Shown here in pieces: positions 1,250-39,952 of a DNA stretch of 64,000 nt. Source of the DNA: a virus (lineage: Duplodnaviria > Caudoviricetes); the IMG/VR virus record IMGVR_UViG_3300042870_001240. One strand, given 5' to 3'. The translations under genes and the position numbers were made by a program. Within the stretch, counting starts at the first letter, position 1; each line of letters starts with the position of its first letter. A model generated the notes under the pieces. The model was given only the letters and a program-made list of their open reading frames with translations, made no database searches and was not told where the DNA came from.

Positions 1250-2308
1250 ATGAATCAAGAACAAATTAAAAAAGTAGAAAAATCAATTCAGAACATGAAA
1301 GATAAAAAATCAAAAATTTATCTTTTAGTTCAAGACACTAAAGGTCACGCCAAAGCGTCGATTGCCTATAGTTACCGTTTAGGTATGACCCTATCAAAAA
1401 AAGGATATAATATGATTATGTTACATGAAAAATCGGATTATACGGGTGTTTCGGAATGGTTAGGTGGTGAATATATGGAATTACCTCATCAACCAATTGA
1501 AGGTCAAAACTTAGAAGTTTCTCCTGAGGATTTTATAATTATTCCTGAACTTTATGGGTTCGTTATGAGTCAAATCACAAAATTACCTTGTGGTAAAATT
1601 GTTTTGTGTCAATCATATGACCATATGTTAGAAACATTACAACCAGGACAAACTTGGGCACAATTAGGGTTTTATAAATGTATCACAACTTCTGAAGCCC
1701 AAAAAGAATACATCTCAAATGTTATGAGAGGAGTATCTATCGATATTATCCCACCATATATTTCCGAAAATTTTAGATTACAAACATTACCACCAAAACC
1801 GATGATTGCTATTCACTCTAGAGAACAAAGAGACACCGCAAACATTATTAAAAACTTTTATATTAAATTTCCTCAATATAGATGGATAACATTTAGAGAT
1901 ATGAGAGGACTAACCGAAAAACAATTTGCGGACGCACTACAAGACTGTTTTCTATCGGTGTGGGTGGATGAAACAAGTTCTTTTGGTACCTTCCCTCTTG
2001 AGTCAATGAAATCAAATGTTCCTGTATTGGGTTTAGTACCTAATCTTGTACCATCATGGATGAATGAAGACAACGGTCTTTGGATTAATAATAAAAATCA
2101 AATAGTAGACTTTGTTGCGGACTTTTTACAAAATTGGCTTGAGGATAATGTTAATGAAAAAATGTATGAGTCAATGTCATTAACTGTAAACGAATCAAGT
2201 TCAAAAACAGATTTTGAAAATACGGTAACTTCCCTTTTTGACGGATTCCTTCAAACAAGATTAAATTCTTTTGAAGAACAATTAAATAAACTAGAACCAA
2301 CAGAATAA
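1250..2308 (+). CDS. GT-B (GT4-like) glycosyltransferase
   Basis: C-terminal ETSSFGTFPLESMKSNVPV matches the GT-B E-x7-E nucleotide-sugar motif. Confidence 0.7.
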   Translation: MNQEQIKKVEKSIQNMKDKKSKIYLLVQDTKGHAKASIAYSYRLGMTLSKKGYNMIMLHEKSDYTGVSEWLGGEYMELPHQPIEGQNLEVSPEDFIIIPELYGFVMSQITKLPCGKIVLCQSYDHMLETLQPGQTWAQLGFYKCITTSEAQKEYISNVMRGVSIDIIPPYISENFRLQTLPPKPMIAIHSREQRDTANIIKNFYIKFPQYRWITFRDMRGLTEKQFADALQDCFLSVWVDETSSFGTFPLESMKSNVPVLGLVPNLVPSWMNEDNGLWINNKNQIVDFVADFLQNWLEDNVNEKMYESMSLTVNESSSKTDFENTVTSLFDGFLQTRLNSFEEQLNKLEPTE

Positions 2309-2331
2309 AAAAAAAAACAAAAATATATAAT

Positions 2332-3135
2332 ATGGAAAATTTTGATGTATCAGTAATACTACCAATTAAATCGTCTAAAGCAAACGGATTTACGGACTAT
2401 TTTGAAAAAGCAATTACTTCTCTTAAAAACCAAACAAAAAAAATAAATGAACTAATAATTGTTCATACTGATGAAACATCTTTAGTTGAGTTTTTAAATA
2501 GTTTTGATTTTGGGGATTTAAAGGTAAATAAAATTGTTTGGACTAAAGACCCTAATTTCTCAGAACAAGTAAATCATGGTGTTAGGTCATCAGAATCTAA
2601 ATGGGTTTCATTATTCGAGTTTGATGATGAATATTCAAACATTTGGTTTAAAAATGTTGAGAAATATACAATCGCACATCCTGAAGTTGACGCGTTCTTA
2701 CCTATCGTTATTGATACGGACGAAAAAGGTCAATTTGCGGGTTTTACCAACGAAGCAACTTTCGCATTAAATATTGCGGCGGAAATGGGTGTCTTAAGTA
2801 ATGAAACACTTCAAACATACCAAAACTTCCAAATTTCAGGAATGGTTATTAAAAAATCATCGTTTATTGATTTTGGTTTATTAAAACCGTCTTTTAAATT
2901 AACATTTGGTTATGAGTTCTTTTTAAGAATGACAAATAATTCGGTAAAAATCATGTCTATACCTAAAATTGGTTATAAACATATTAATTTACGTGAAGGG
3001 TCAATTTTTTGGAACTATAAGAATGGTGATGACAATCTAACAGATGAAGAAGTTAGATTTTGGGTAGAGTCGGCGAAAAAAGAATATTTCTTTATCAATG
3101 ATAGGTCCATAAAATATGAACCCCAAACAGTTTAA
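2332..3135 (+). CDS. GT-A (GT2-like) glycosyltransferase
   Basis: VSVILPI start, NHGV, EFDD DxD-like motif. Confidence 0.75.
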   Translation: MENFDVSVILPIKSSKANGFTDYFEKAITSLKNQTKKINELIIVHTDETSLVEFLNSFDFGDLKVNKIVWTKDPNFSEQVNHGVRSSESKWVSLFEFDDEYSNIWFKNVEKYTIAHPEVDAFLPIVIDTDEKGQFAGFTNEATFALNIAAEMGVLSNETLQTYQNFQISGMVIKKSSFIDFGLLKPSFKLTFGYEFFLRMTNNSVKIMSIPKIGYKHINLREGSIFWNYKNGDDNLTDEEVRFWVESAKKEYFFINDRSIKYEPQTV

Positions 3136-3884
3136 TGAGCGAAATACTAATTTTATCAGGCTCGACAGATACAGATTTAAAAAAGAAAGGAAGGAAACCA
3201 AAACAAGCAAATTATTTTGATGTCCGAGAAGAAATGGCTGTGGTAAGATTTTTATCAACCGAATCCTCAGAAGAAAAAAATAAAATCTACAATGAGTTTT
3301 TAAGACACCCTTTAGACAAGATGATTTCCTCAATTATTAGGAGATATAAATTGTATCGTAAAGATATGGACTTCATAGAAATCCATACTGACACACATTC
3401 TTTTCTAATGACAAAAATAGATAAGTTTAAACCCGCGAAGGAAAAAAAGGCTTACTCATATTTTGGAACTATTTGTAAGAATTATTTAATGGGTCAAATA
3501 ATTAAAGACCAAAAGGAAACTAATCGAAAAATTTCATATGAAGATATTTCAACAAGTATTGAAAATAGTCCTGAATTTTCATACCTAATGGATAAGGATT
3601 CGGTTAACTCAGAACAAATAATTAAAAATTTCTTAAGGGAATTAGATAAATTTTTAACTGAGCAAACGTTAAATGAAAATGAGATTAAATTAGGACACGC
3701 GTTATACGACCTATTCAATGACTATGAAAACATTTTTGTTGGGGCATCAAATAACAAATTCAATAAAAATATAATACTCTTATCCTTGAGAGAAATGACT
3801 AATCTATCAACAAAAGAGATACGTAGTTCTATGAAAAAATATAGAATCATATATCTTAACTTAGTTGAAAAAATGGCACAATAA
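3135..3884 (+). CDS. RNA polymerase sigma factor, T4 gp55-like (late sigma)
   Basis: Region-2-like KIDKFKP...AYSYFGTICKNYL. Confidence 0.6.
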   Translation: MSEILILSGSTDTDLKKKGRKPKQANYFDVREEMAVVRFLSTESSEEKNKIYNEFLRHPLDKMISSIIRRYKLYRKDMDFIEIHTDTHSFLMTKIDKFKPAKEKKAYSYFGTICKNYLMGQIIKDQKETNRKISYEDISTSIENSPEFSYLMDKDSVNSEQIIKNFLRELDKFLTEQTLNENEIKLGHALYDLFNDYENIFVGASNNKFNKNIILLSLREMTNLSTKEIRSSMKKYRIIYLNLVEKMAQ

Positions 3885-4285: not shown

Positions 4286-6211
4286 ATGAGTTTAGACCTT
4301 AATGCCGATTATAAAAAAGTACAAGATAAAGTTTCCGCAACTAAATCGTACACTGAAGCAAAAAAACAATACAACTCGGCAAAAAAAAAGGCAGGAGAAA
4401 GTTTTGATGATAAAAAATCAGATGTTACTCAAAGTATTAATAAGGTAAAAGAACAAACTAAACGTTTTGAAAAACAAATTAAAAACCAATTTGAACAATT
4501 ATTAGATATTAATAATACTACTGGTGGTAAGGGGAGTAATTCAATTAAATACGTTAAAAAATTATTACTACAAACTTTAAAAAATATTGAGCCAAAAATT
4601 TTAGAAATTCTTAATGAAGAGTCGTTAAATGCCGTTGGTTGTGACCAACAACAAATGTTTAATGCACAAAATATATACATAAAGGTATCATCAATTGACC
4701 TTGGAGGACTATTAAAAAAAGACCCAACGGAACCTATTGGTAAAGTATTATATGAAAAAGACCCAATACAAATCCAACAATACCCATTCTCTTTAAATAA
4801 GGAACTTTATAGACGAATTGAAAGTGGTCAACCATACTCGGTTGATAATGGTCAATTATATATAGGACGGTCAGGTCAAAACCTTTTTGACATACAATAT
4901 GTTGAGACGGATAACTTAGGACAAACAGGTCCTTGGTATAAAGTAACACTGGTAAATAGAGTAAATAATATAAATAAGGTGGGGGAATTTATGGTTGACT
5001 ATTATAAGACAATTAAAATAGTTGATTATCATAATATAATGGCGTCAATAATGGAGTCCTTATCAGGCGCAATCTCCATTCAAGCAAATGTTGGTTTAGT
5101 TCAAGCGGAGGACGCAACAAAATTTCAATTAATTCTACAAAGGATATTAGGTCTTTGTTTTGATAATAAAACTGAGATTGATGTTAGTGGTGTTGCAAAA
5201 GTTGCAGAATTAGACGGAGTAGACGATGCGTTTTTTGAATTTACTGAAATAGATTTAAGGAATATTGATTTAAAAGTAAATAACATTAAAAATGGTGTTG
5301 TCGAATATGAAAATTGTGATAACGTTAAATTACCTGTCAATTCTGTTGCGGTATTAAATTCCTTAGAGAATTTATTATACATTCCCGATAATGATTTGGT
5401 AAACGCCGCAGATACGTTAACACAATCTCTTACGGATAATCCTGAGTGGTCAGGATTAGCAATTTCGGGTAATATAAATGCCGCAGTTAACCTTAATTTT
5501 GTAAAATTACTTACACAAGGTTTAGTGACCGCAATTCTATCACCAAAAATTCTTCTCCCAATTTTTACTATGTTAAAATCTTTGGGAAATACTGTTACCG
5601 ACAAAATTAATTCTTTTATAGATTTTGCCAAAAACTTTAAAAGTTTTGTTTTCAATTTAGTTTCTAAAATAGGAGGGTTATTTGTTAAAGAATTATTTGA
5701 ATTAATTAAAAAAGATATTAAAAATTTAATTCAACAAGTCATCATGGATGTTGCTAAAGAAACAAAGGATAAAAGAATTATAATTATTTTAAAGTTAATC
5801 CAGTTATTATTAATCATCACACAATTTATTAGTGATTGGAGGAAATGTAAAAGCGTTGTTGACGAACTATTATGGTTATTAAAAGTCTCCACCTCAGGAT
5901 TTAACGCTGCAGGAGCATTTTCAGCAAAAGGTCTACCTTTACCTTTATTATTTGCATCACAGTTAATGGAAGGGTATTCAGAATCAAGGGCATTTCTTGG
6001 AGCTATTGAGGAAATGCAGAAGTTAGGTATTCCAACAGGACCTATGCCTGATGGTAGTCCTAACTTAGAAGTTTTAAGTAAATTTGCTCAGATGAAAGCC
6101 ATGGCGAATGAAGAAGCCGAAAATGGTAAAGTACAAATTGCCGTTGGTCCATTAAGTATAACACCCGCAGGTTTAACAGTACCCGCAAGCGCTTTCGGTA
6201 AAAAATTATAA
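4286..6211 (+). CDS. large hypothetical protein, probably virion structural
   Basis: 641-aa ORF in the late operon upstream of the baseplate spike gene. Confidence 0.6.
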   Translation: MSLDLNADYKKVQDKVSATKSYTEAKKQYNSAKKKAGESFDDKKSDVTQSINKVKEQTKRFEKQIKNQFEQLLDINNTTGGKGSNSIKYVKKLLLQTLKNIEPKILEILNEESLNAVGCDQQQMFNAQNIYIKVSSIDLGGLLKKDPTEPIGKVLYEKDPIQIQQYPFSLNKELYRRIESGQPYSVDNGQLYIGRSGQNLFDIQYVETDNLGQTGPWYKVTLVNRVNNINKVGEFMVDYYKTIKIVDYHNIMASIMESLSGAISIQANVGLVQAEDATKFQLILQRILGLCFDNKTEIDVSGVAKVAELDGVDDAFFEFTEIDLRNIDLKVNNIKNGVVEYENCDNVKLPVNSVAVLNSLENLLYIPDNDLVNAADTLTQSLTDNPEWSGLAISGNINAAVNLNFVKLLTQGLVTAILSPKILLPIFTMLKSLGNTVTDKINSFIDFAKNFKSFVFNLVSKIGGLFVKELFELIKKDIKNLIQQVIMDVAKETKDKRIIIILKLIQLLLIITQFISDWRKCKSVVDELLWLLKVSTSGFNAAGAFSAKGLPLPLLFASQLMEGYSESRAFLGAIEEMQKLGIPTGPMPDGSPNLEVLSKFAQMKAMANEEAENGKVQIAVGPLSITPAGLTVPASAFGKKL

Positions 6212-35593: not shown

Positions 35594-35645
35594 TTTGTTA
35601 TCGTCAGATTTATTCGTATATTTGTAAAACAATAGTTCTTTAACA
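35594..35645 (+). promoter_or_regulatory. Bacteroidetes-type promoter plus boxA-like element for tmRNA
   Basis: TTTG(35594)-N19-TATATTTG(35617), then AGTTCTTTAACA (35634-35645). Confidence 0.7.
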
Positions 35646-35649
35646 TCAT

Positions 35650-36063
35650 GGGGGTAAATTGGAATTGACTGACATAGTTGGTTGTTCGGGGCATGTCAAG
35701 GCTGAGCTAACCTTGTAAAACTGGTTTAAATCGATATACGGCAACGTTATCAACAAACTTTCTGCAGTAGGATTAATCCGCACTGAAGAAAATGTTTCAG
35801 TAGCCTAAGGCGAAAAAAACAACGGGTAGATAGACTTATACCTAGGAACAGAACAGTCTTCATGGTGTGACATCTACCATAAAAGGTGTAAACTCTAACC
35901 AATCAGAGGATAATCAGATGGCAGAGGATAAGTTCTCAGTAAACCGAACTGTATAATAAGGGAACTGTGGGATTTCGGATTGTTAGATTAAACAATGACC
36001 TAAACATGTAGTCCTTAATAATCGTTATGGACAACTACGAGGGTTCGAGTCCCTCTATCTCCA
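35650..36063 (+). ncRNA. ssrA: tmRNA
   Basis: 5' GGGGGTA pairs with 3' TATCTCC-A including G3:U70; T arm GAGGG-TTCGAGT-CCCTC; 5' GGAATTGAC; tag ORF 35740-35808 GNVINKLSAVGLIRTEENVSVA*. Confidence 0.9.
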
Positions 36064-36120
36064 CATTTAACATTTTTGTTCTTTTACTATATTTTGAAAT
36101 ATTTATAGTGAAAGAACAAA

Positions 36121-36801
36121 ATGCCAAGAAAAAAACCTAATTTCCACTATATCTATAAAACCATTTGTAATTTTAATCAAAAATACTATATCGGAATGCA
36201 CAGCACATCTAATTTAGAGGATGGGTATATGGGTAGTGGTAAAAGATTAAGATATTCAATAAGAAAGTATGGTAAGGATAACCACACTAAAATTATTATA
36301 GAGTTTTTACCTAACAGAGAATCATTAAAAGAACGTGAAATTGAAATTGTTAATTCGGATTTATTATTAGATGAAAATTGTATAAATCTTAAAACAGGTG
36401 GTTATGGTGGAGGGAAATTTTATTCTGAAGAACATAAATTAAAATGTTCTAAATCCGGTAATGAAATGTTTTTAAAAAAAATGCAAGATGAGGAGTATCG
36501 GAAAGAGTTTTCGAAAAAATTAAGTAATGCTTATAAAAAACAAGTTCTTGAAGGTAAACGAGAAAAAAAATATTTTTACCATTGGAATGGGAAAACTCAC
36601 ACAGATGAATCTAAACAAAAAATGAGTGAAGTGAAGAAAGGGACTGGTATTGGTATTAAAAATTCACAATACGGGACTTGTTGGATAACTAAAAATAACG
36701 AAAATAAAAAAATTAAAAAGACTGACATTAATCTGTATTTAGATGATGGATGGGTTAGAGGTAGAAATACAGGTATAACCAAAAAGATAACTAAAGTATA
36801 A
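36121..36801 (+). CDS. GIY-YIG (Seg-like) homing endonuclease with a NUMOD3-like motif
   Basis: YIY...YYIGMH...YMGSG; HTDESKQKMSE. Confidence 0.85.
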   Translation: MPRKKPNFHYIYKTICNFNQKYYIGMHSTSNLEDGYMGSGKRLRYSIRKYGKDNHTKIIIEFLPNRESLKEREIEIVNSDLLLDENCINLKTGGYGGGKFYSEEHKLKCSKSGNEMFLKKMQDEEYRKEFSKKLSNAYKKQVLEGKREKKYFYHWNGKTHTDESKQKMSEVKKGTGIGIKNSQYGTCWITKNNENKKIKKTDINLYLDDGWVRGRNTGITKKITKV

Positions 36802-36802
36802 T

Positions 36803-36836
36803 AAAAAACCCCACCTGTTTAGGATGGGGTTTTTTT
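36803..36836. terminator. bidirectional terminator
   Basis: AAAAAACCCCA...TGGGGTTTTTT between convergent genes. Confidence 0.8.
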
Positions 36837-36837
36837 G

Positions 36838-37137
36838 TTAGGATTTAAATCCCTCAATGATTTGTAATAGTTTGTCAGCTCGTTTGTCAGTATGACTTTT
36901 AGATTCTTGATGAAGTTCATCGATACGTCTATAGATGTGGTCAACAGTAACGTCTAACTCACGTTTATTTTCGTCTAAAATTCTTTGGTCGTAATCAACA
37001 TCTCTTTCATAAGATATTCTGAAATCTTCCAAATCTTTTTTTGTTCTAACAACCTTAACTAACCCCCAAACAAGAGCAACAATAAAAATTATTGCAATAA
37101 TCGAAAGGACACCTAAAGTAAAATAAAATGTTTCCAT
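36838..37137 (-). CDS. small membrane-anchored coiled-coil protein
   Basis: N-terminal TM helix FTLGVLSIIAIIFIVALVWGLV. Confidence 0.65.
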   Translation of the reverse strand: METFYFTLGVLSIIAIIFIVALVWGLVKVVRTKKDLEDFRISYERDVDYDQRILDENKRELDVTVDHIYRRIDELHQESKSHTDKRADKLLQIIEGFKS

Positions 37138-37206
37138 TATTTTAAGATTTTGTTTTTTATACCTCAAGGGTAATAAAATATAATGGAGAGTGTAGAAAAA
37201 GGAAAT

Positions 37207-37250
37207 AAAAAAAAGGGAGATAATGATGGCTAGTCAAAATCTCCCTTTTA
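37207..37250 (-). terminator. terminator closing the RNA-gene transcript
   Basis: Minus strand AAGGGAGAT...ATCTCCCTTTTTTTT. Confidence 0.7.
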
Positions 37251-37632
37251 GCCTAAACATTGTCACTCGGTAAGTTCAACCCGAGGTAGTGATTAGTGAA
37301 ACCTCTACCTAACTTCTATCGTGAGTTGTGATTGGTGTACGACCTAAACGTTTGTATGTTTATTACCCTTTATTAATTTTAAGACTTAAAGGGAACGTGG
37401 TTATAACAAAATCCACATCCTATAAAAAAAGTCCTGACAATTTTTACCACTATATCACCTCAGGTTGTCGTGTCAAAGACAGATTGGTACTTATTACTTT
37501 TTATATTTTCTATGAGGTAGAATCGTGAAGTCACAAGATAAAACAAACACGCAAAGACCCAAATCATTATGTTTTCCTTCAGTTTAAACTCGTGGTGGGT
37601 GTTATGATTTAAAAAAACACGTACGGAGTCAC
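37250..37632 (-). ncRNA. candidate ~380-nt structured RNA (unassigned)
   Basis: No credible ORF; multiple inverted repeats; lies between tRNA-Met and a terminator. Confidence 0.45.
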
Positions 37633-37636
37633 TTAG

Positions 37637-37709
37637 TTGCGGGAGAAGGATTCGAACCTCCGACCTAAAGGTTATGAGCCTTTCGAGCTACCAACTGCTC
37701 TATCCCACT
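37637..37709 (-). tRNA. tRNA-Met(CAT), initiator-like, no encoded CCA
   Basis: Cloverleaf; loop CTCATAA; unpaired 1:72 (A:A); TTCGAAT T loop. Confidence 0.9.
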
Positions 37710-37727
37710 ATATTTGGCTATAAATAA

Positions 37728-38590
37728 GGCTGAGATTACACCTGTTTATGAGAAACTTTAGTAGGATTATTGATTCCCCACATATCCACTTCCTTTTGAG
37801 AAGTATTCCTCAGTGACGATTGGTTAGACCAATCACTTCTTGAGATATCAGTTACTCTCTTATTACTTAACTCTCTTCAAAGATGCCTCTCCGACTCTTC
37901 CTTATGGGAATAGAGGTTTTTGGTAAGAATACAGTCAGACTTGCGGTCTTCATGTGCAATGAACGGCTCATTACTATGTAGTCACCTTTCACTGATACCT
38001 AACGGACACTTTTGCTTATTTTTAGTTAATTTTACTTAATTTAGTATAAGTTACGTGTTGTGGATGAATCAAAGTAGCGGTCCGTTGAAGGATTCGTTCT
38101 CTTTTGGAAAACGAAATACCAAACTACTCCGTGAGATGTCCCCATCTCCATATTTTAAGATTACTTCGTACCAAGACTTTGGTAAGTCTTTGATAAGGAC
38201 AGTAGCGACACCACTCGTTCTCTATCTTACCTTTCGGTTTTAAGTCCCCTCTTATATTGGTAACCGCAATCATGTAGTTGGAGACCACATTTTTTGCTTG
38301 ATACCTATGGGTTATTCTTATTGGAGTTCCCTCCTCAGACTGACAATCCACATTGCCGTTCCACCCAACCACTTTCCCTAAAGCGTTGCCCTCAGTACTA
38401 AAGGTCGGATGATATCCCACTTGTGTACTCGACCTCGGTTTCCCAAGACGCGAACCTACTAACACTTGAAGATTCACTTTATCCCACTTTCGTGGTTTAT
38501 TTAACGACCATACACGGCCGATTATCTTTTTTCAGTTATCTCAGAATCAACCCGAAGGTCTCATCATAAACATCCTGATGGATAATACAA
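37728..38590 (-). ncRNA. ~860-nt large ornate RNA, GOLLD-like
   Basis: No credible ORF; many GNRA/UUCG-capped hairpins; directly upstream of a tRNA in a phage; own promoter and boxA. Confidence 0.65.
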
Positions 38591-38593
38591 TAA

Positions 38594-38661
38594 TTCAAAG
38601 AACATATCGGACGTTTCCGATTTTGTTTTACAAAGATAGTAAACTTTTTTGATTTACCAAA
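38594..38661 (-). promoter_or_regulatory. promoter + hairpin + boxA-like leader, copy 1
   Basis: TTTG-N19-TATCTTTG (38661-38631), hairpin ATCGGA-AACG-TCCGAT, TGTTCTTTGAA. Confidence 0.7.
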
Positions 38662-38737
38662 TCTTTTTTTGTTTTTTTTTGAGATTAGGAAACCACGATT
38701 TTACAACTAACTGTCAACCCATTCTCATTTTGTTTTA

Positions 38738-38769
38738 CAAAGATAAGACATTTTTTTCAATCTGTCAAA
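38738..38769 (-). promoter_or_regulatory. Bacteroidetes-type promoter
   Basis: TTTG-N20-TATCTTTG. Confidence 0.6.
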
Positions 38770-38778
38770 TCTTTTTAT

Positions 38779-38895
38779 GGTTATTATAACTGATGCGGTA
38801 ACATATTTCATTTACACTTTAAATGCGAAGGAGTCCCGTAGTCACTTTCCTCACATACAACAGTAGCCCTACGGACCTAGACTGTTTCTATAACC
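38779..38895 (-). ncRNA. candidate ~115-nt structured RNA
   Basis: Terminal GGTTAT/ATAACC pairing plus crossed ACAGT/ACTGT and CCGTAG/CTACGG helices. Confidence 0.4.
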
Positions 38896-38901
38896 AATTT
38901 C

Positions 38902-38969
38902 TTCAAAGAACTAAATCAGACGTTCCCGATTTGTTTTACAAAGATAGTAAACTTTTTTGATTTACCAAA
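38902..38969 (-). promoter_or_regulatory. promoter + hairpin + boxA-like leader, copy 2
   Basis: TTTG-N19-TATCTTTG (38969-38939), hairpin ATCGGG-AACG-TCTGAT, GTTCTTTGAA. Confidence 0.7.
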
Positions 38970-39194
38970 TTTTTTTTTGTTTTTTTTTAAAAGAACTTTT
39001 TTAAATAAAAAAGGTATTGTATAAATATCACCACTTCTTTCAAATGTTTTACAAAGGTAATAAAAAAATTTTATCTGACAAGACCTGTAGGTTATTTTTT
39101 TATAAAAAATAAATTTAAAAAGAAAAAGTGACGAATAAGTCGACTTATCGTAAATAAACACGTATTTATTTATACAAATAAAAACAACAAATTT

Positions 39195-39347
39195 ATGAAA
39201 AAAGTAATTTTCGCAATAGTAATTGCAGGTAGCGTAATGTTATCATCATGCGGTGGTTCAACCACAAAATGTGAAGTCTCATCGACTGATACAACAACAG
39301 TTGATTCTGTGGTAACTCAAACAGTCGACACCGTTAAAACAAAGTAA
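39195..39347 (+). CDS. small lipoprotein (50 aa, not in ORF track)
   Basis: MKKVIFAIVIAGSVMLSS-C lipobox; Thr/Ser/Asp-rich tail; TATTTAT at 39163; terminator follows. Confidence 0.75.
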   Translation: MKKVIFAIVIAGSVMLSSCGGSTTKCEVSSTDTTTVDSVVTQTVDTVKTK

Positions 39348-39356
39348 TTAGTTTAG

Positions 39357-39384
39357 TCCCCTTAGAAATAAGGGGATTTTTTTT
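39357..39384. terminator. terminator between convergent genes
   Basis: TCCCCTT/AAGGGGA stem with T tract. Confidence 0.7.
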
Positions 39385-39952
39385 AATGGTTAATTAATTT
39401 TTTTATTTTATTAATTTCCTCTTTAATAAGTGGGTTACCATTTATAATATTTTCCTTAAAAAACGCATTACCAACAACACCAAATGGTAACGCAATTAAA
39501 TCAATGAATGGATTTCGGGTTTTACCTGTTCTATAAGTGGATGTAGATTTAGTTTCCTTTTCCTTTTTATTCTCAACGTCTTTTTCTCCACCGTTAGATG
39601 TTACAATATTTCCTGATAAAAATTTATTGGCATCAATCTTATCATTATTCTTATCCGTCACCGCATACTCAATTGGAGAATCTCCAACAGTCCCAATAAT
39701 ACTCCCTTGTTTAACTTTATCCCCAACAAATGACATTATTCGATTAACCTTACAAAAATTAGAGAAATAAGTATTACCATTAATATTATGAGCAATTTTA
39801 ATATTACCGTCACATTTAAATTTATCTGAAGATACAACAACACCTTCTGATGGGTTACGTATTACGTCAGAATTATATGAAGAGAACTCAATTGTTTTTG
39901 AAAACATCGGAGAACTTATTCTGGCATTTGGTAATGGATTTAAAATCTTCAT
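39383..39952 (-). CDS. M23-fold protein with degenerate Zn ligands
   Basis: EGVV...IKIAH...VGDKVKQGSIIG; HxxxD and HxH motifs absent. Confidence 0.6.
   Translation of the reverse strand: MKILNPLPNARISSPMFSKTIEFSSYNSDVIRNPSEGVVVSSDKFKCDGNIKIAHNINGNTYFSNFCKVNRIMSFVGDKVKQGSIIGTVGDSPIEYAVTDKNNDKIDANKFLSGNIVTSNGGEKDVENKKEKETKSTSTYRTGKTRNPFIDLIALPFGVVGNAFFKENIINGNPLIKEEINKIKKLINH

Follow-up and report, generated by a model that had tools for sequence, protein, structure and literature searches.

Three non-coding RNAs (GOLLD, the small unit-2 RNA and tmRNA) encoded in a 64,000-nucleotide stretch of DNA from a lake phage of Bacteroidota, hereafter the window, are preceded by leaders carrying the boxA word GTTCTTTGA(A), whose sequence, position, orientation and conservation, as well as identity with elements of the rRNA (rrn) operons of the host phylum, the Bacteroidota, are established. 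We propose, with a probability of about 0.7, that this word acts as an rrn-type loading site for NusB/NusE, which would shield an untranslated operon of about 1.85 kb from Rho and may also aid the folding of its RNAs. An earlier note on this DNA had suggested that the phage co-opts the host rrn machinery to produce its large RNAs, and this reading gains support from both the host rrn match and the conservation of the signal.

The RNA island and its leaders

The window is phage DNA encoding a major head protein, a portal and a large terminase, together with a ClpC-like ATPase, a T4-type RNA ligase and M23 peptidases, and IMG/VR contains a fragment 98% identical to it. Its RNA island (35.6-39.1 kb) comprises a tmRNA on the plus strand and a GOLLD RNA with a tRNA-Met on the minus strand, and the leader region with its promoters occupies 470 nt upstream of GOLLD on the minus strand. 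Word shares in RNA runs indicated that lake metatranscriptome assemblies contain parts of the stretch. The RNAs and the end of the unit are as follows.

35650-36066 (+): phage tmRNA (RF00023, 78.6 bits)
37207-37249 (-): intrinsic terminator, an 11-bp stem followed by a T run (-17.2 kcal/mol, z -3.9)
37250-37635 (-): ORF-free stretch of 380 nt, from tRNA-Met to the terminator
37636-37709 (-): tRNA-Met (CAT), 17 nt after GOLLD
37727-38586 (-): GOLLD RNA, with the Rfam 3' domain at 37727-38131 (RF02032) and the 5' domain reaching to about 38586
38778-38897 (-): unit-2 RNA, structured, about 120 nt, behind the P2 leader

The division of GOLLD into 5' and 3' domains has been described (bioRxiv preprint 10.1101/2024.12.08.627333). 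The copy in the window scored 319.1 bits with RF02032, above the gathering threshold of 150, and its 5' end was set from conservation among the leaders of its relatives. For unit-2 RNA, RNAalifold analysis of five phage variants predicted 37 pairs, with compensatory changes in 4; the predicted closing helix, which has 2 compensatory pairs, begins 4 nt past boxA and recalls the rrn leader-trailer helix. Unit-2 RNA is common to loci L156, L157, L160 and L398, and a 31-nt insert is present in two variants. Neither the leader nor unit-2 RNA nor the 380-nt tail could be assigned to a family in an Rfam search of 36800-39400 at a permissive E-value; the tail (37250-37635, minus strand) may represent an additional non-coding RNA of this operon, of which the terminator at 37207-37249 is likely the end. 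No convincing intrinsic terminator was found on the minus strand from P1 to tRNA-Met in a terminator scan, the only flags being the 6-bp leader hairpin and a 5-bp stem within unit-2 RNA, neither of which is followed by a clean T run. From P1 to the terminator the unit extends over about 1.85 kb without a reading frame, which makes it a natural Rho target.

Directly 3' of the tmRNA, an ORF of 226 aa (36121-36801, plus strand) contains a NUMOD3 motif and is homing-endonuclease-like; another of 50 aa (39195-39378, plus strand), which is divergent from P1 and has its own terminator (39355-39378), encodes a lipoprotein-type signal (…VMLSSC…).

Promoters, hairpins and boxA words are arranged as listed below.

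39052-39082 (-): P1, promoter-like, with TACCTTTG at 39052-39059 and CTTG (not TTTG) 19 nt upstream, then TAAAACA
38988-38996 (-): boxA-like variant GTTCTTTTA in the P1 leader
38939-38969 (-): P2, TTTG-N19-TATCTTTG, conserved in L156, L160 and L398
38915-38930 (-): leader hairpin 2, ATCGGG-AACG-TCTGAT, 6 bp with two G:U pairs
38901-38911 (-): boxA copy 2, GTTCTTTGAAG, with GTTCTTTGA at 38903-38911, preceding unit-2 RNA
38738-38769 (-): P3, TTTG-N20-TATCTTTG, followed by a hairpin region of about 50 nt
38631-38661 (-): P4, TTTG-N19-TATCTTTG, a near-duplicate of P2
38606-38621 (-): leader hairpin 1, ATCGGA-AACG-TCCGAT, 6 bp
38593-38603 (-): boxA copy 1, GTTCTTTGAAT, with GTTCTTTGA at 38595-38603, 6 nt before the conserved GOLLD 5' end (ATTATCC...)
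35594-35624 (+): tmRNA promoter, TTTG-N19-TATATTTG, then TAAAACA
35634-35645 (+): tmRNA-leader boxA, AGTTCTTTAACA, 4 nt before the tmRNA 5' end

The earlier note had described four minus-strand TAnnTTTG elements, three of them with TTTG at a spacing of 19-20 nt. All four are where it placed them, within 450 nt, and the three spaced pairs were found at 38631-38661, 38738-38769 and 38939-38969. Sites of the form TTTG-N19/20-TAnnTTTG number 10 in the window versus 2.75 expected, a count reached by 0 shuffles, and the 11-mer TTTGTAAAACA has exactly five copies in the 64 kb, namely the four leader promoters and the tmRNA promoter only. We take these promoters to be of the Bacteroidota -33/-7 type. 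When genome contigs were scanned with TTTGTAAAACA...GTTCTTTRA, almost all matches were chance or coding. Elsewhere in the window, a GC-richer ORF-free stretch (45500-45700, minus strand) was seen after a tRNA-Leu (45696-45780); a promoter past this tRNA (TTTG-N20-TACATTTG, 45563-45594, minus strand) has TAGAACA, not TAAAACA, and no boxA.

The two near-duplicate leader units reported in the same note proved to be a 66-nt repeat with 94% identity, comprising the P2 and P4 copies, and both stems that it had placed ahead of boxA, as well as its AGTTCTTTAACA behind the tmRNA promoter, are present as described; the variant in the P1 leader was absent from it. Both boxA copies of the repeat read GTTCTTTGAA(T/G), and the signal is thus doubled, one copy preceding unit-2 RNA and the other, at a distance of 308 nt, preceding GOLLD. 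The variant element of the P1 leader is also found behind a P1-like promoter in L156, and as GTTCTTTAA in L442, while no boxA lies downstream of P3. The word of the tmRNA leader, AGTTCTTTAACA, is an exact fit to GYTCTTTAANA. Overall, boxA is placed 5-27 nt past the TAnnTTTG of predicted promoters and 4-15 nt before RNA 5' ends. The short word alone is not significant (7 occurrences of GTTCTTTRA in the whole window versus 3.1 expected); its significance derives from where and in which orientation it lies and from its conservation in relatives.

The leader word in related phages and before other RNA genes

The same leader stands ahead of GOLLD in about 100 related phage contigs. A 19-nt word from the GOLLD core, free of leader sequence, was used as the search word and gave 118 viral loci, 104 of which had at least 1 kb upstream and were usable. 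The motif GTTC[AT]TT[GA]A occurred at -720 to -480 from the GOLLD core in 102/104 loci; antisense occurrences within these limits were found in 0/104. Recurrence of the motif upstream of homologous RNAs, on which the earlier note had made its reading depend, is thus seen before GOLLD, and it extends to diverged phage tmRNA leaders. Among 70 distinct leaders, boxA positions 1-7 are invariant and the flanks vary freely; the positions left free by the search are also fixed (T5 in 70/70, G8 in 68/70, A10 in 67/70 and A11 in 57/70). Judging from these alignments, the boxA word of GOLLD leaders is under strong purifying selection. A chance motif was ruled out by the sense and antisense counts together with the invariance over the 70 leaders. 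We also rejected the possibility that the motif is a piece of GOLLD's own fold, the same word being found in front of tmRNA, tRNAs, unit-2 RNA, an mRNA and host rRNA.

A leader-only pattern, devoid of GOLLD sequence, recovered 13 viral contigs, 11 of which have GOLLD 430-820 nt downstream. When BLASTN was run against the phage collection, LR745206.1 (a 634-kb uncultured phage) was the only relative, tRNA matches aside. Its interval between tRNA-Met and GOLLD contains the hairpin GTTACTC-AACG-GAGTAAC followed by TAGTTCTTTGAA, and one of its tRNA leaders consists of a promoter, the hairpin AACCA-GAAA-TGGTT and AAGTTCTTTGAA. In L122, boxA comes after a tRNA and before GOLLD, with no adjoining promoter. 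In the relatives L398, L447, L394, L400 and L377, a conserved protein gene (MSNETQV/MSDETQV start) lies upstream of the GOLLD core at a distance of about 800-1080 nt, and its 5' untranslated region has a promoter and GTTCTTTGA, GTTCATTAA or GTTCTTTAA; the word is therefore not specific to RNA genes.

Within the window the motif is always near a promoter, and the conserved TAAAACA past the -7 element denotes selection on promoter-proximal bases, as would be expected if the motif were a DNA-level element such as an extended promoter, an initially transcribed region or the operator of a regulator. However, it lies anywhere from 5 to 27 nt from the -7 element, promoterless copies exist in L122 and in host spacers, and it is strictly confined to one strand. 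A DNA-level element appears very unlikely, and the variable promoter distance and the promoterless L122 copy fit a signal acting at the RNA level.

Scans of genome contigs with the GOLLD-core word gave mostly chance matches, true GOLLD being limited to L482, L537 and L567, with a partial one in L576. The mycobacterial GOLLD loci L567 and L537 (8-kb loci) have neither the host-type boxA (TGTTGTTTGAGAA) nor GTTCTTTGA upstream; the boxA of mycobacterial rrn leaders (rrn operons L594 and L595) is TGTTGTTTGAGAAC. These two loci indicate that GOLLD does not need boxA everywhere, and that the leader is a trait of an aquatic, mostly Bacteroidota-type GOLLD clade.

The hairpin that precedes boxA is also recurrent in the relatives. 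The 28 nt before boxA have a mean folding energy of -4.3 kcal/mol, versus -0.9 for shuffles, and 34 of 54 distinct hairpin segments beat 95% of their own shuffles. The stem occurs in several versions (ATCGGA/TCCGAT, ATCAGA/TCTGAT, TCAGGA/TCCTGA, TTCGGA/TCCGAA, ATCG/CGAT and GTTACTC/GAGTAAC), with A-rich loops throughout and a gap of 1-4 nt to boxA. In a 16-nt hairpin alignment of 12 members, changes on both sides were found in 5 of 6 pairs; the members were chosen for pairing ability and pair at 100% by construction, so that only the covariation carries weight. Alignment of 12 whole leaders with MAFFT and RNAalifold misaligned the 3' arms and gave no structure. About a dozen leader variants have a different upstream sequence and no such hairpin, which is also absent from the short tmRNA and tRNA leaders.

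A hairpin followed by a T-rich sequence could be read as a weak intrinsic terminator or attenuator limiting RNA output, and a simple scan does flag 38621-38606 as terminator-like. The stems are only 4-7 bp long, though, and the T run is interrupted and lies 1-4 nt from the stem; conservation covers the whole 9-mer rather than the T tract, and the short leaders have no hairpin at all. We consider attenuation barely plausible.

The word is also found in front of other stable RNA genes. Three diverged phage tmRNAs share the order promoter, boxA, about 5 nt and GGGG, their words being AGTTCTTTAACA, AGTTCTTTAAAA and AGTTCATTAACA. In L161, a 286-kb phage contig, GATCTTTGAAA, directly past a -7 element, heads an array of about 11 tRNAs, and a lone tRNA is preceded by TATCTTTGTAAAA-GTTCTTTAA. 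The tRNA regions of this contig are at 2165-3350 and 5503-5600, and a second array promoter (4303) has no boxA. Among ssrA genes of the host phylum, 19 of 50 have a boxA-like word within 30 nt upstream, 12 of them exact, while 1 of 30 RNase P RNA genes taken as a control (L498-L527) has one within 80 nt upstream. Where host ssrA genes (loci L293-L312 and L327-L336) have GTTCTTTGA or GTTCTTTAA, it lies 5-8 nt before the mature 5' end, and no boxA-like word was found at Flavobacteriia-type ssrA genes. In L030, a Saccharofermentanales MAG (Firmicutes), a tmRNA-like GGGGGTGAC start has GTTCTTTAA 5 nt upstream of it, and boxA before ssrA may thus occur outside Bacteroidota. The literature searched contained no paper on boxA with tmRNA genes.

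Match to the rRNA operons of the host phylum

E. coli rrn operons have boxB, boxA and boxC downstream of P2 and a second time ahead of 23S, and boxA is both required and enough for the antitermination complex (PMC10250234). The functional boxA consensus GYTCTTTAANA is gammaproteobacterial (PMC5725501); in B. subtilis rrn a small 5' hairpin is directly followed by AUGAUCUUUGAAA, which is bound by NusB, as shown by NMR (PMC13753749). We found nothing on boxA in Bacteroidetes in the literature searched. The earlier note had called for a comparison with the boxA of host rrn leaders. It was made at the level of the host phylum, with an unbiased rrn sample from the Bacteroidota (GTDB phylum), in which the boxA word, with at most 1 mismatch and mostly as exact GTTCTTTGA, was present in 24/24 16S leaders and 29/29 16S-23S spacers; Flavobacteriaceae have a variant, GTTCAT(T/A)GA (GTTCATTGA), one letter off the phage word. 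Since the phage word is found in the leader as well as in the spacer of host rrn operons, both classic boxA positions are matched. With an exact-pattern scan, GTTCTTTGAnATATTG was recovered before 16S and between tRNA and 23S in Prevotella, Chitinophagaceae, Saprospiraceae, Cytophagales and Sphingobacteriales. In 33 Flavobacteriaceae 16S leaders, a TATATTTGCACCCGC promoter is followed by a hairpin, an A-rich spacer and then a boxA-type word, which reads AGTTCAT(T/A)GAnATATTGAA(A)TTGACAGCG and lies 115-185 nt before 16S. The order promoter, hairpin, boxA of the phage leaders is thus the order found in host rrn leaders.

These data bear on two further explanations. Several features would suit a Nus-independent module for 5' stability or processing, in which the hairpin protects the transcript and the U-rich word is an endonuclease site releasing the mature RNAs: the predicted 5' end is only a few nt from the hairpin, mature 5' ends (the RNase P site of tmRNA, the conserved start of GOLLD) come 4-15 nt after the motif, and rrn leaders are likewise removed by processing. 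Yet the 9-mer is identical to the rrn boxA, also to the one within the 16S-23S spacer, a place without a 5' end to protect, and its nine-base invariance goes beyond that known for RNase E-type sites. Moreover, RNase P makes tRNA and tmRNA 5' ends independently of upstream sequence, and we know of no upstream sequence requirement for these ends. Such a module is an unlikely explanation of the leader.

The second is that hairpin and boxA form a nut-like site, at which a phage factor, N-like or other, would act with host Nus proteins in a phage-specific antitermination. Conserved A-rich loops (AACG, AAAG, AATG, GAAA) over many stems might be recognized by such a factor, lambda N being known to bind a boxB hairpin adjoining boxA (PMC10250234). 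This is difficult to reconcile with host rrn leaders, which share the promoter-hairpin-boxA layout in the absence of any phage, with the short tmRNA and tRNA leaders, which lack the hairpin, and with the order boxB then boxA, which is that of rrn and not of nut. No N-like family was detected among the 10 neighbouring proteins scanned, which represent part of the genome. A nut-like site seems improbable, still more so than a stability module. Taken together, the variable promoter distance, the promoterless copies, the one-strand signal and the same layout in host rrn make these four alternatives fit the data less well than an rrn-type boxA.

Proposed mechanism and likeness to known systems

If the leader word is an rrn-type boxA, the following sequence of events can be proposed. 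Host sigma-A RNA polymerase would start 4-8 nt past TAnnTTTG, and the first transcribed bases would fold into a small 5' hairpin, the equivalent of rrn boxB, which may also protect the 5' end. Emerging 1-4 nt after the hairpin, boxA would be bound by host NusB-NusE(S10), and, given its identity with the host rrn signal, this pair would be expected to nucleate a Nus-factor antitermination complex on the polymerase. The modified polymerase would then be Rho-resistant over the ribosome-free stretch of about 1.85 kb comprising unit-2 RNA, GOLLD, tRNA-Met and the 380-nt tail, and the antiterminated transcript would end at the terminator at 37207-37249. The complex may in addition keep the 5' leader at the RNA exit and thereby promote the correct closure of long-range helices, as proposed for rRNA; 3' of the GOLLD-leader boxA, neither a leader-trailer-type helix around GOLLD nor a GU-rich boxC word was found. 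A short form of the leader, consisting of promoter, boxA and RNase P site, would serve tmRNA and some phage tRNAs. In the papers searched, we found no measurements of binding, start sites or read-through for a Bacteroidota boxA.

GOLLD is among the largest bacterial and phage non-coding RNAs and forms a 14-mer nanocage, and to our knowledge its production in the cell has not been addressed so far. The conserved rrn-type boxA leader provides a testable hypothesis for its biogenesis, and it suggests that phages borrow the transcription mode of host rRNA, which is Rho-resistant, fast and folding-assisting, for their large RNAs. A more far-reaching idea, possible but doubtful at present, is that the rRNA antitermination complex is a required co-transcriptional chaperone of nanocage RNAs, with boxA anchoring the leader while the 860-nt GOLLD loops out and folds, and that the cassette marks a wider 'stable-RNA regulon' of Bacteroidota including ssrA, which jumbo and lake phages would have copied for tRNA, tmRNA and GOLLD operons. 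The use of boxA by lambdoid phages is already known. In bacteria, boxA had been reported before suhB and CRISPR arrays (PMC5725501, and cited in PMC13753749); no paper tying it to GOLLD or to phage RNA operons was found in the literature searched. The set of genes likely controlled by boxA would be widened to non-coding RNAs, which were explicitly excluded from the main survey (PMC5725501), and to the tmRNA genes of many Bacteroidota. In addition, the 40-nt promoter-hairpin-boxA cassette is a candidate part for the expression of long untranslated RNAs in Bacteroidota.

One close likeness is to the rrn antiterminator of E. coli (boxB, boxA and boxC; rrnTAC with NusA/B/E/G, SuhB and S4). The phage signal likewise lies just past tandem promoters, a hairpin comes first and boxA next, a second boxA is found ahead of the next large RNA, and long untranslated stable RNAs with a tRNA stand behind the signal; the word of the phage tmRNA leader is one base off UGCUCUUUAACA in the 11-nt core. 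Unlike in E. coli, the phage leaders carry GTTCTTTGA, a word of the Bacteroidota and Bacillus type, with no more than 1-4 nt separating it from the hairpin; a GU-rich boxC word is not recognisable, and the RNAs concerned are those of a phage. The B. subtilis rrn leader shares the small 5'-terminal hairpin directly followed by (G)NUCUUUGAAA, and L161 has GATCTTTGAAA at the head of its tRNA array, but phylum and promoter type are different and the context here is a phage.

With the lambda nut sites (boxA and boxB, with the N protein) the leader shares a boxA RNA beside a hairpin and, as we propose here, the use of host Nus factors. In contrast to nut, the hairpin of the phage leader precedes boxA, no N-like protein is evident, and the leader drives RNA genes and not early mRNAs. 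The lambda boxA is weaker, whereas that of the phage leader is the full rrn consensus. Finally, the boxA elements of suhB and CRISPR arrays (PMC5725501, PMC13753749) are gammaproteobacterial chromosomal loci, as opposed to a Bacteroidota phage RNA operon and host ssrA; in common with the phage leader, they represent a use outside rrn operons, ahead of long transcripts that are not translated and would be open to Rho without boxA.
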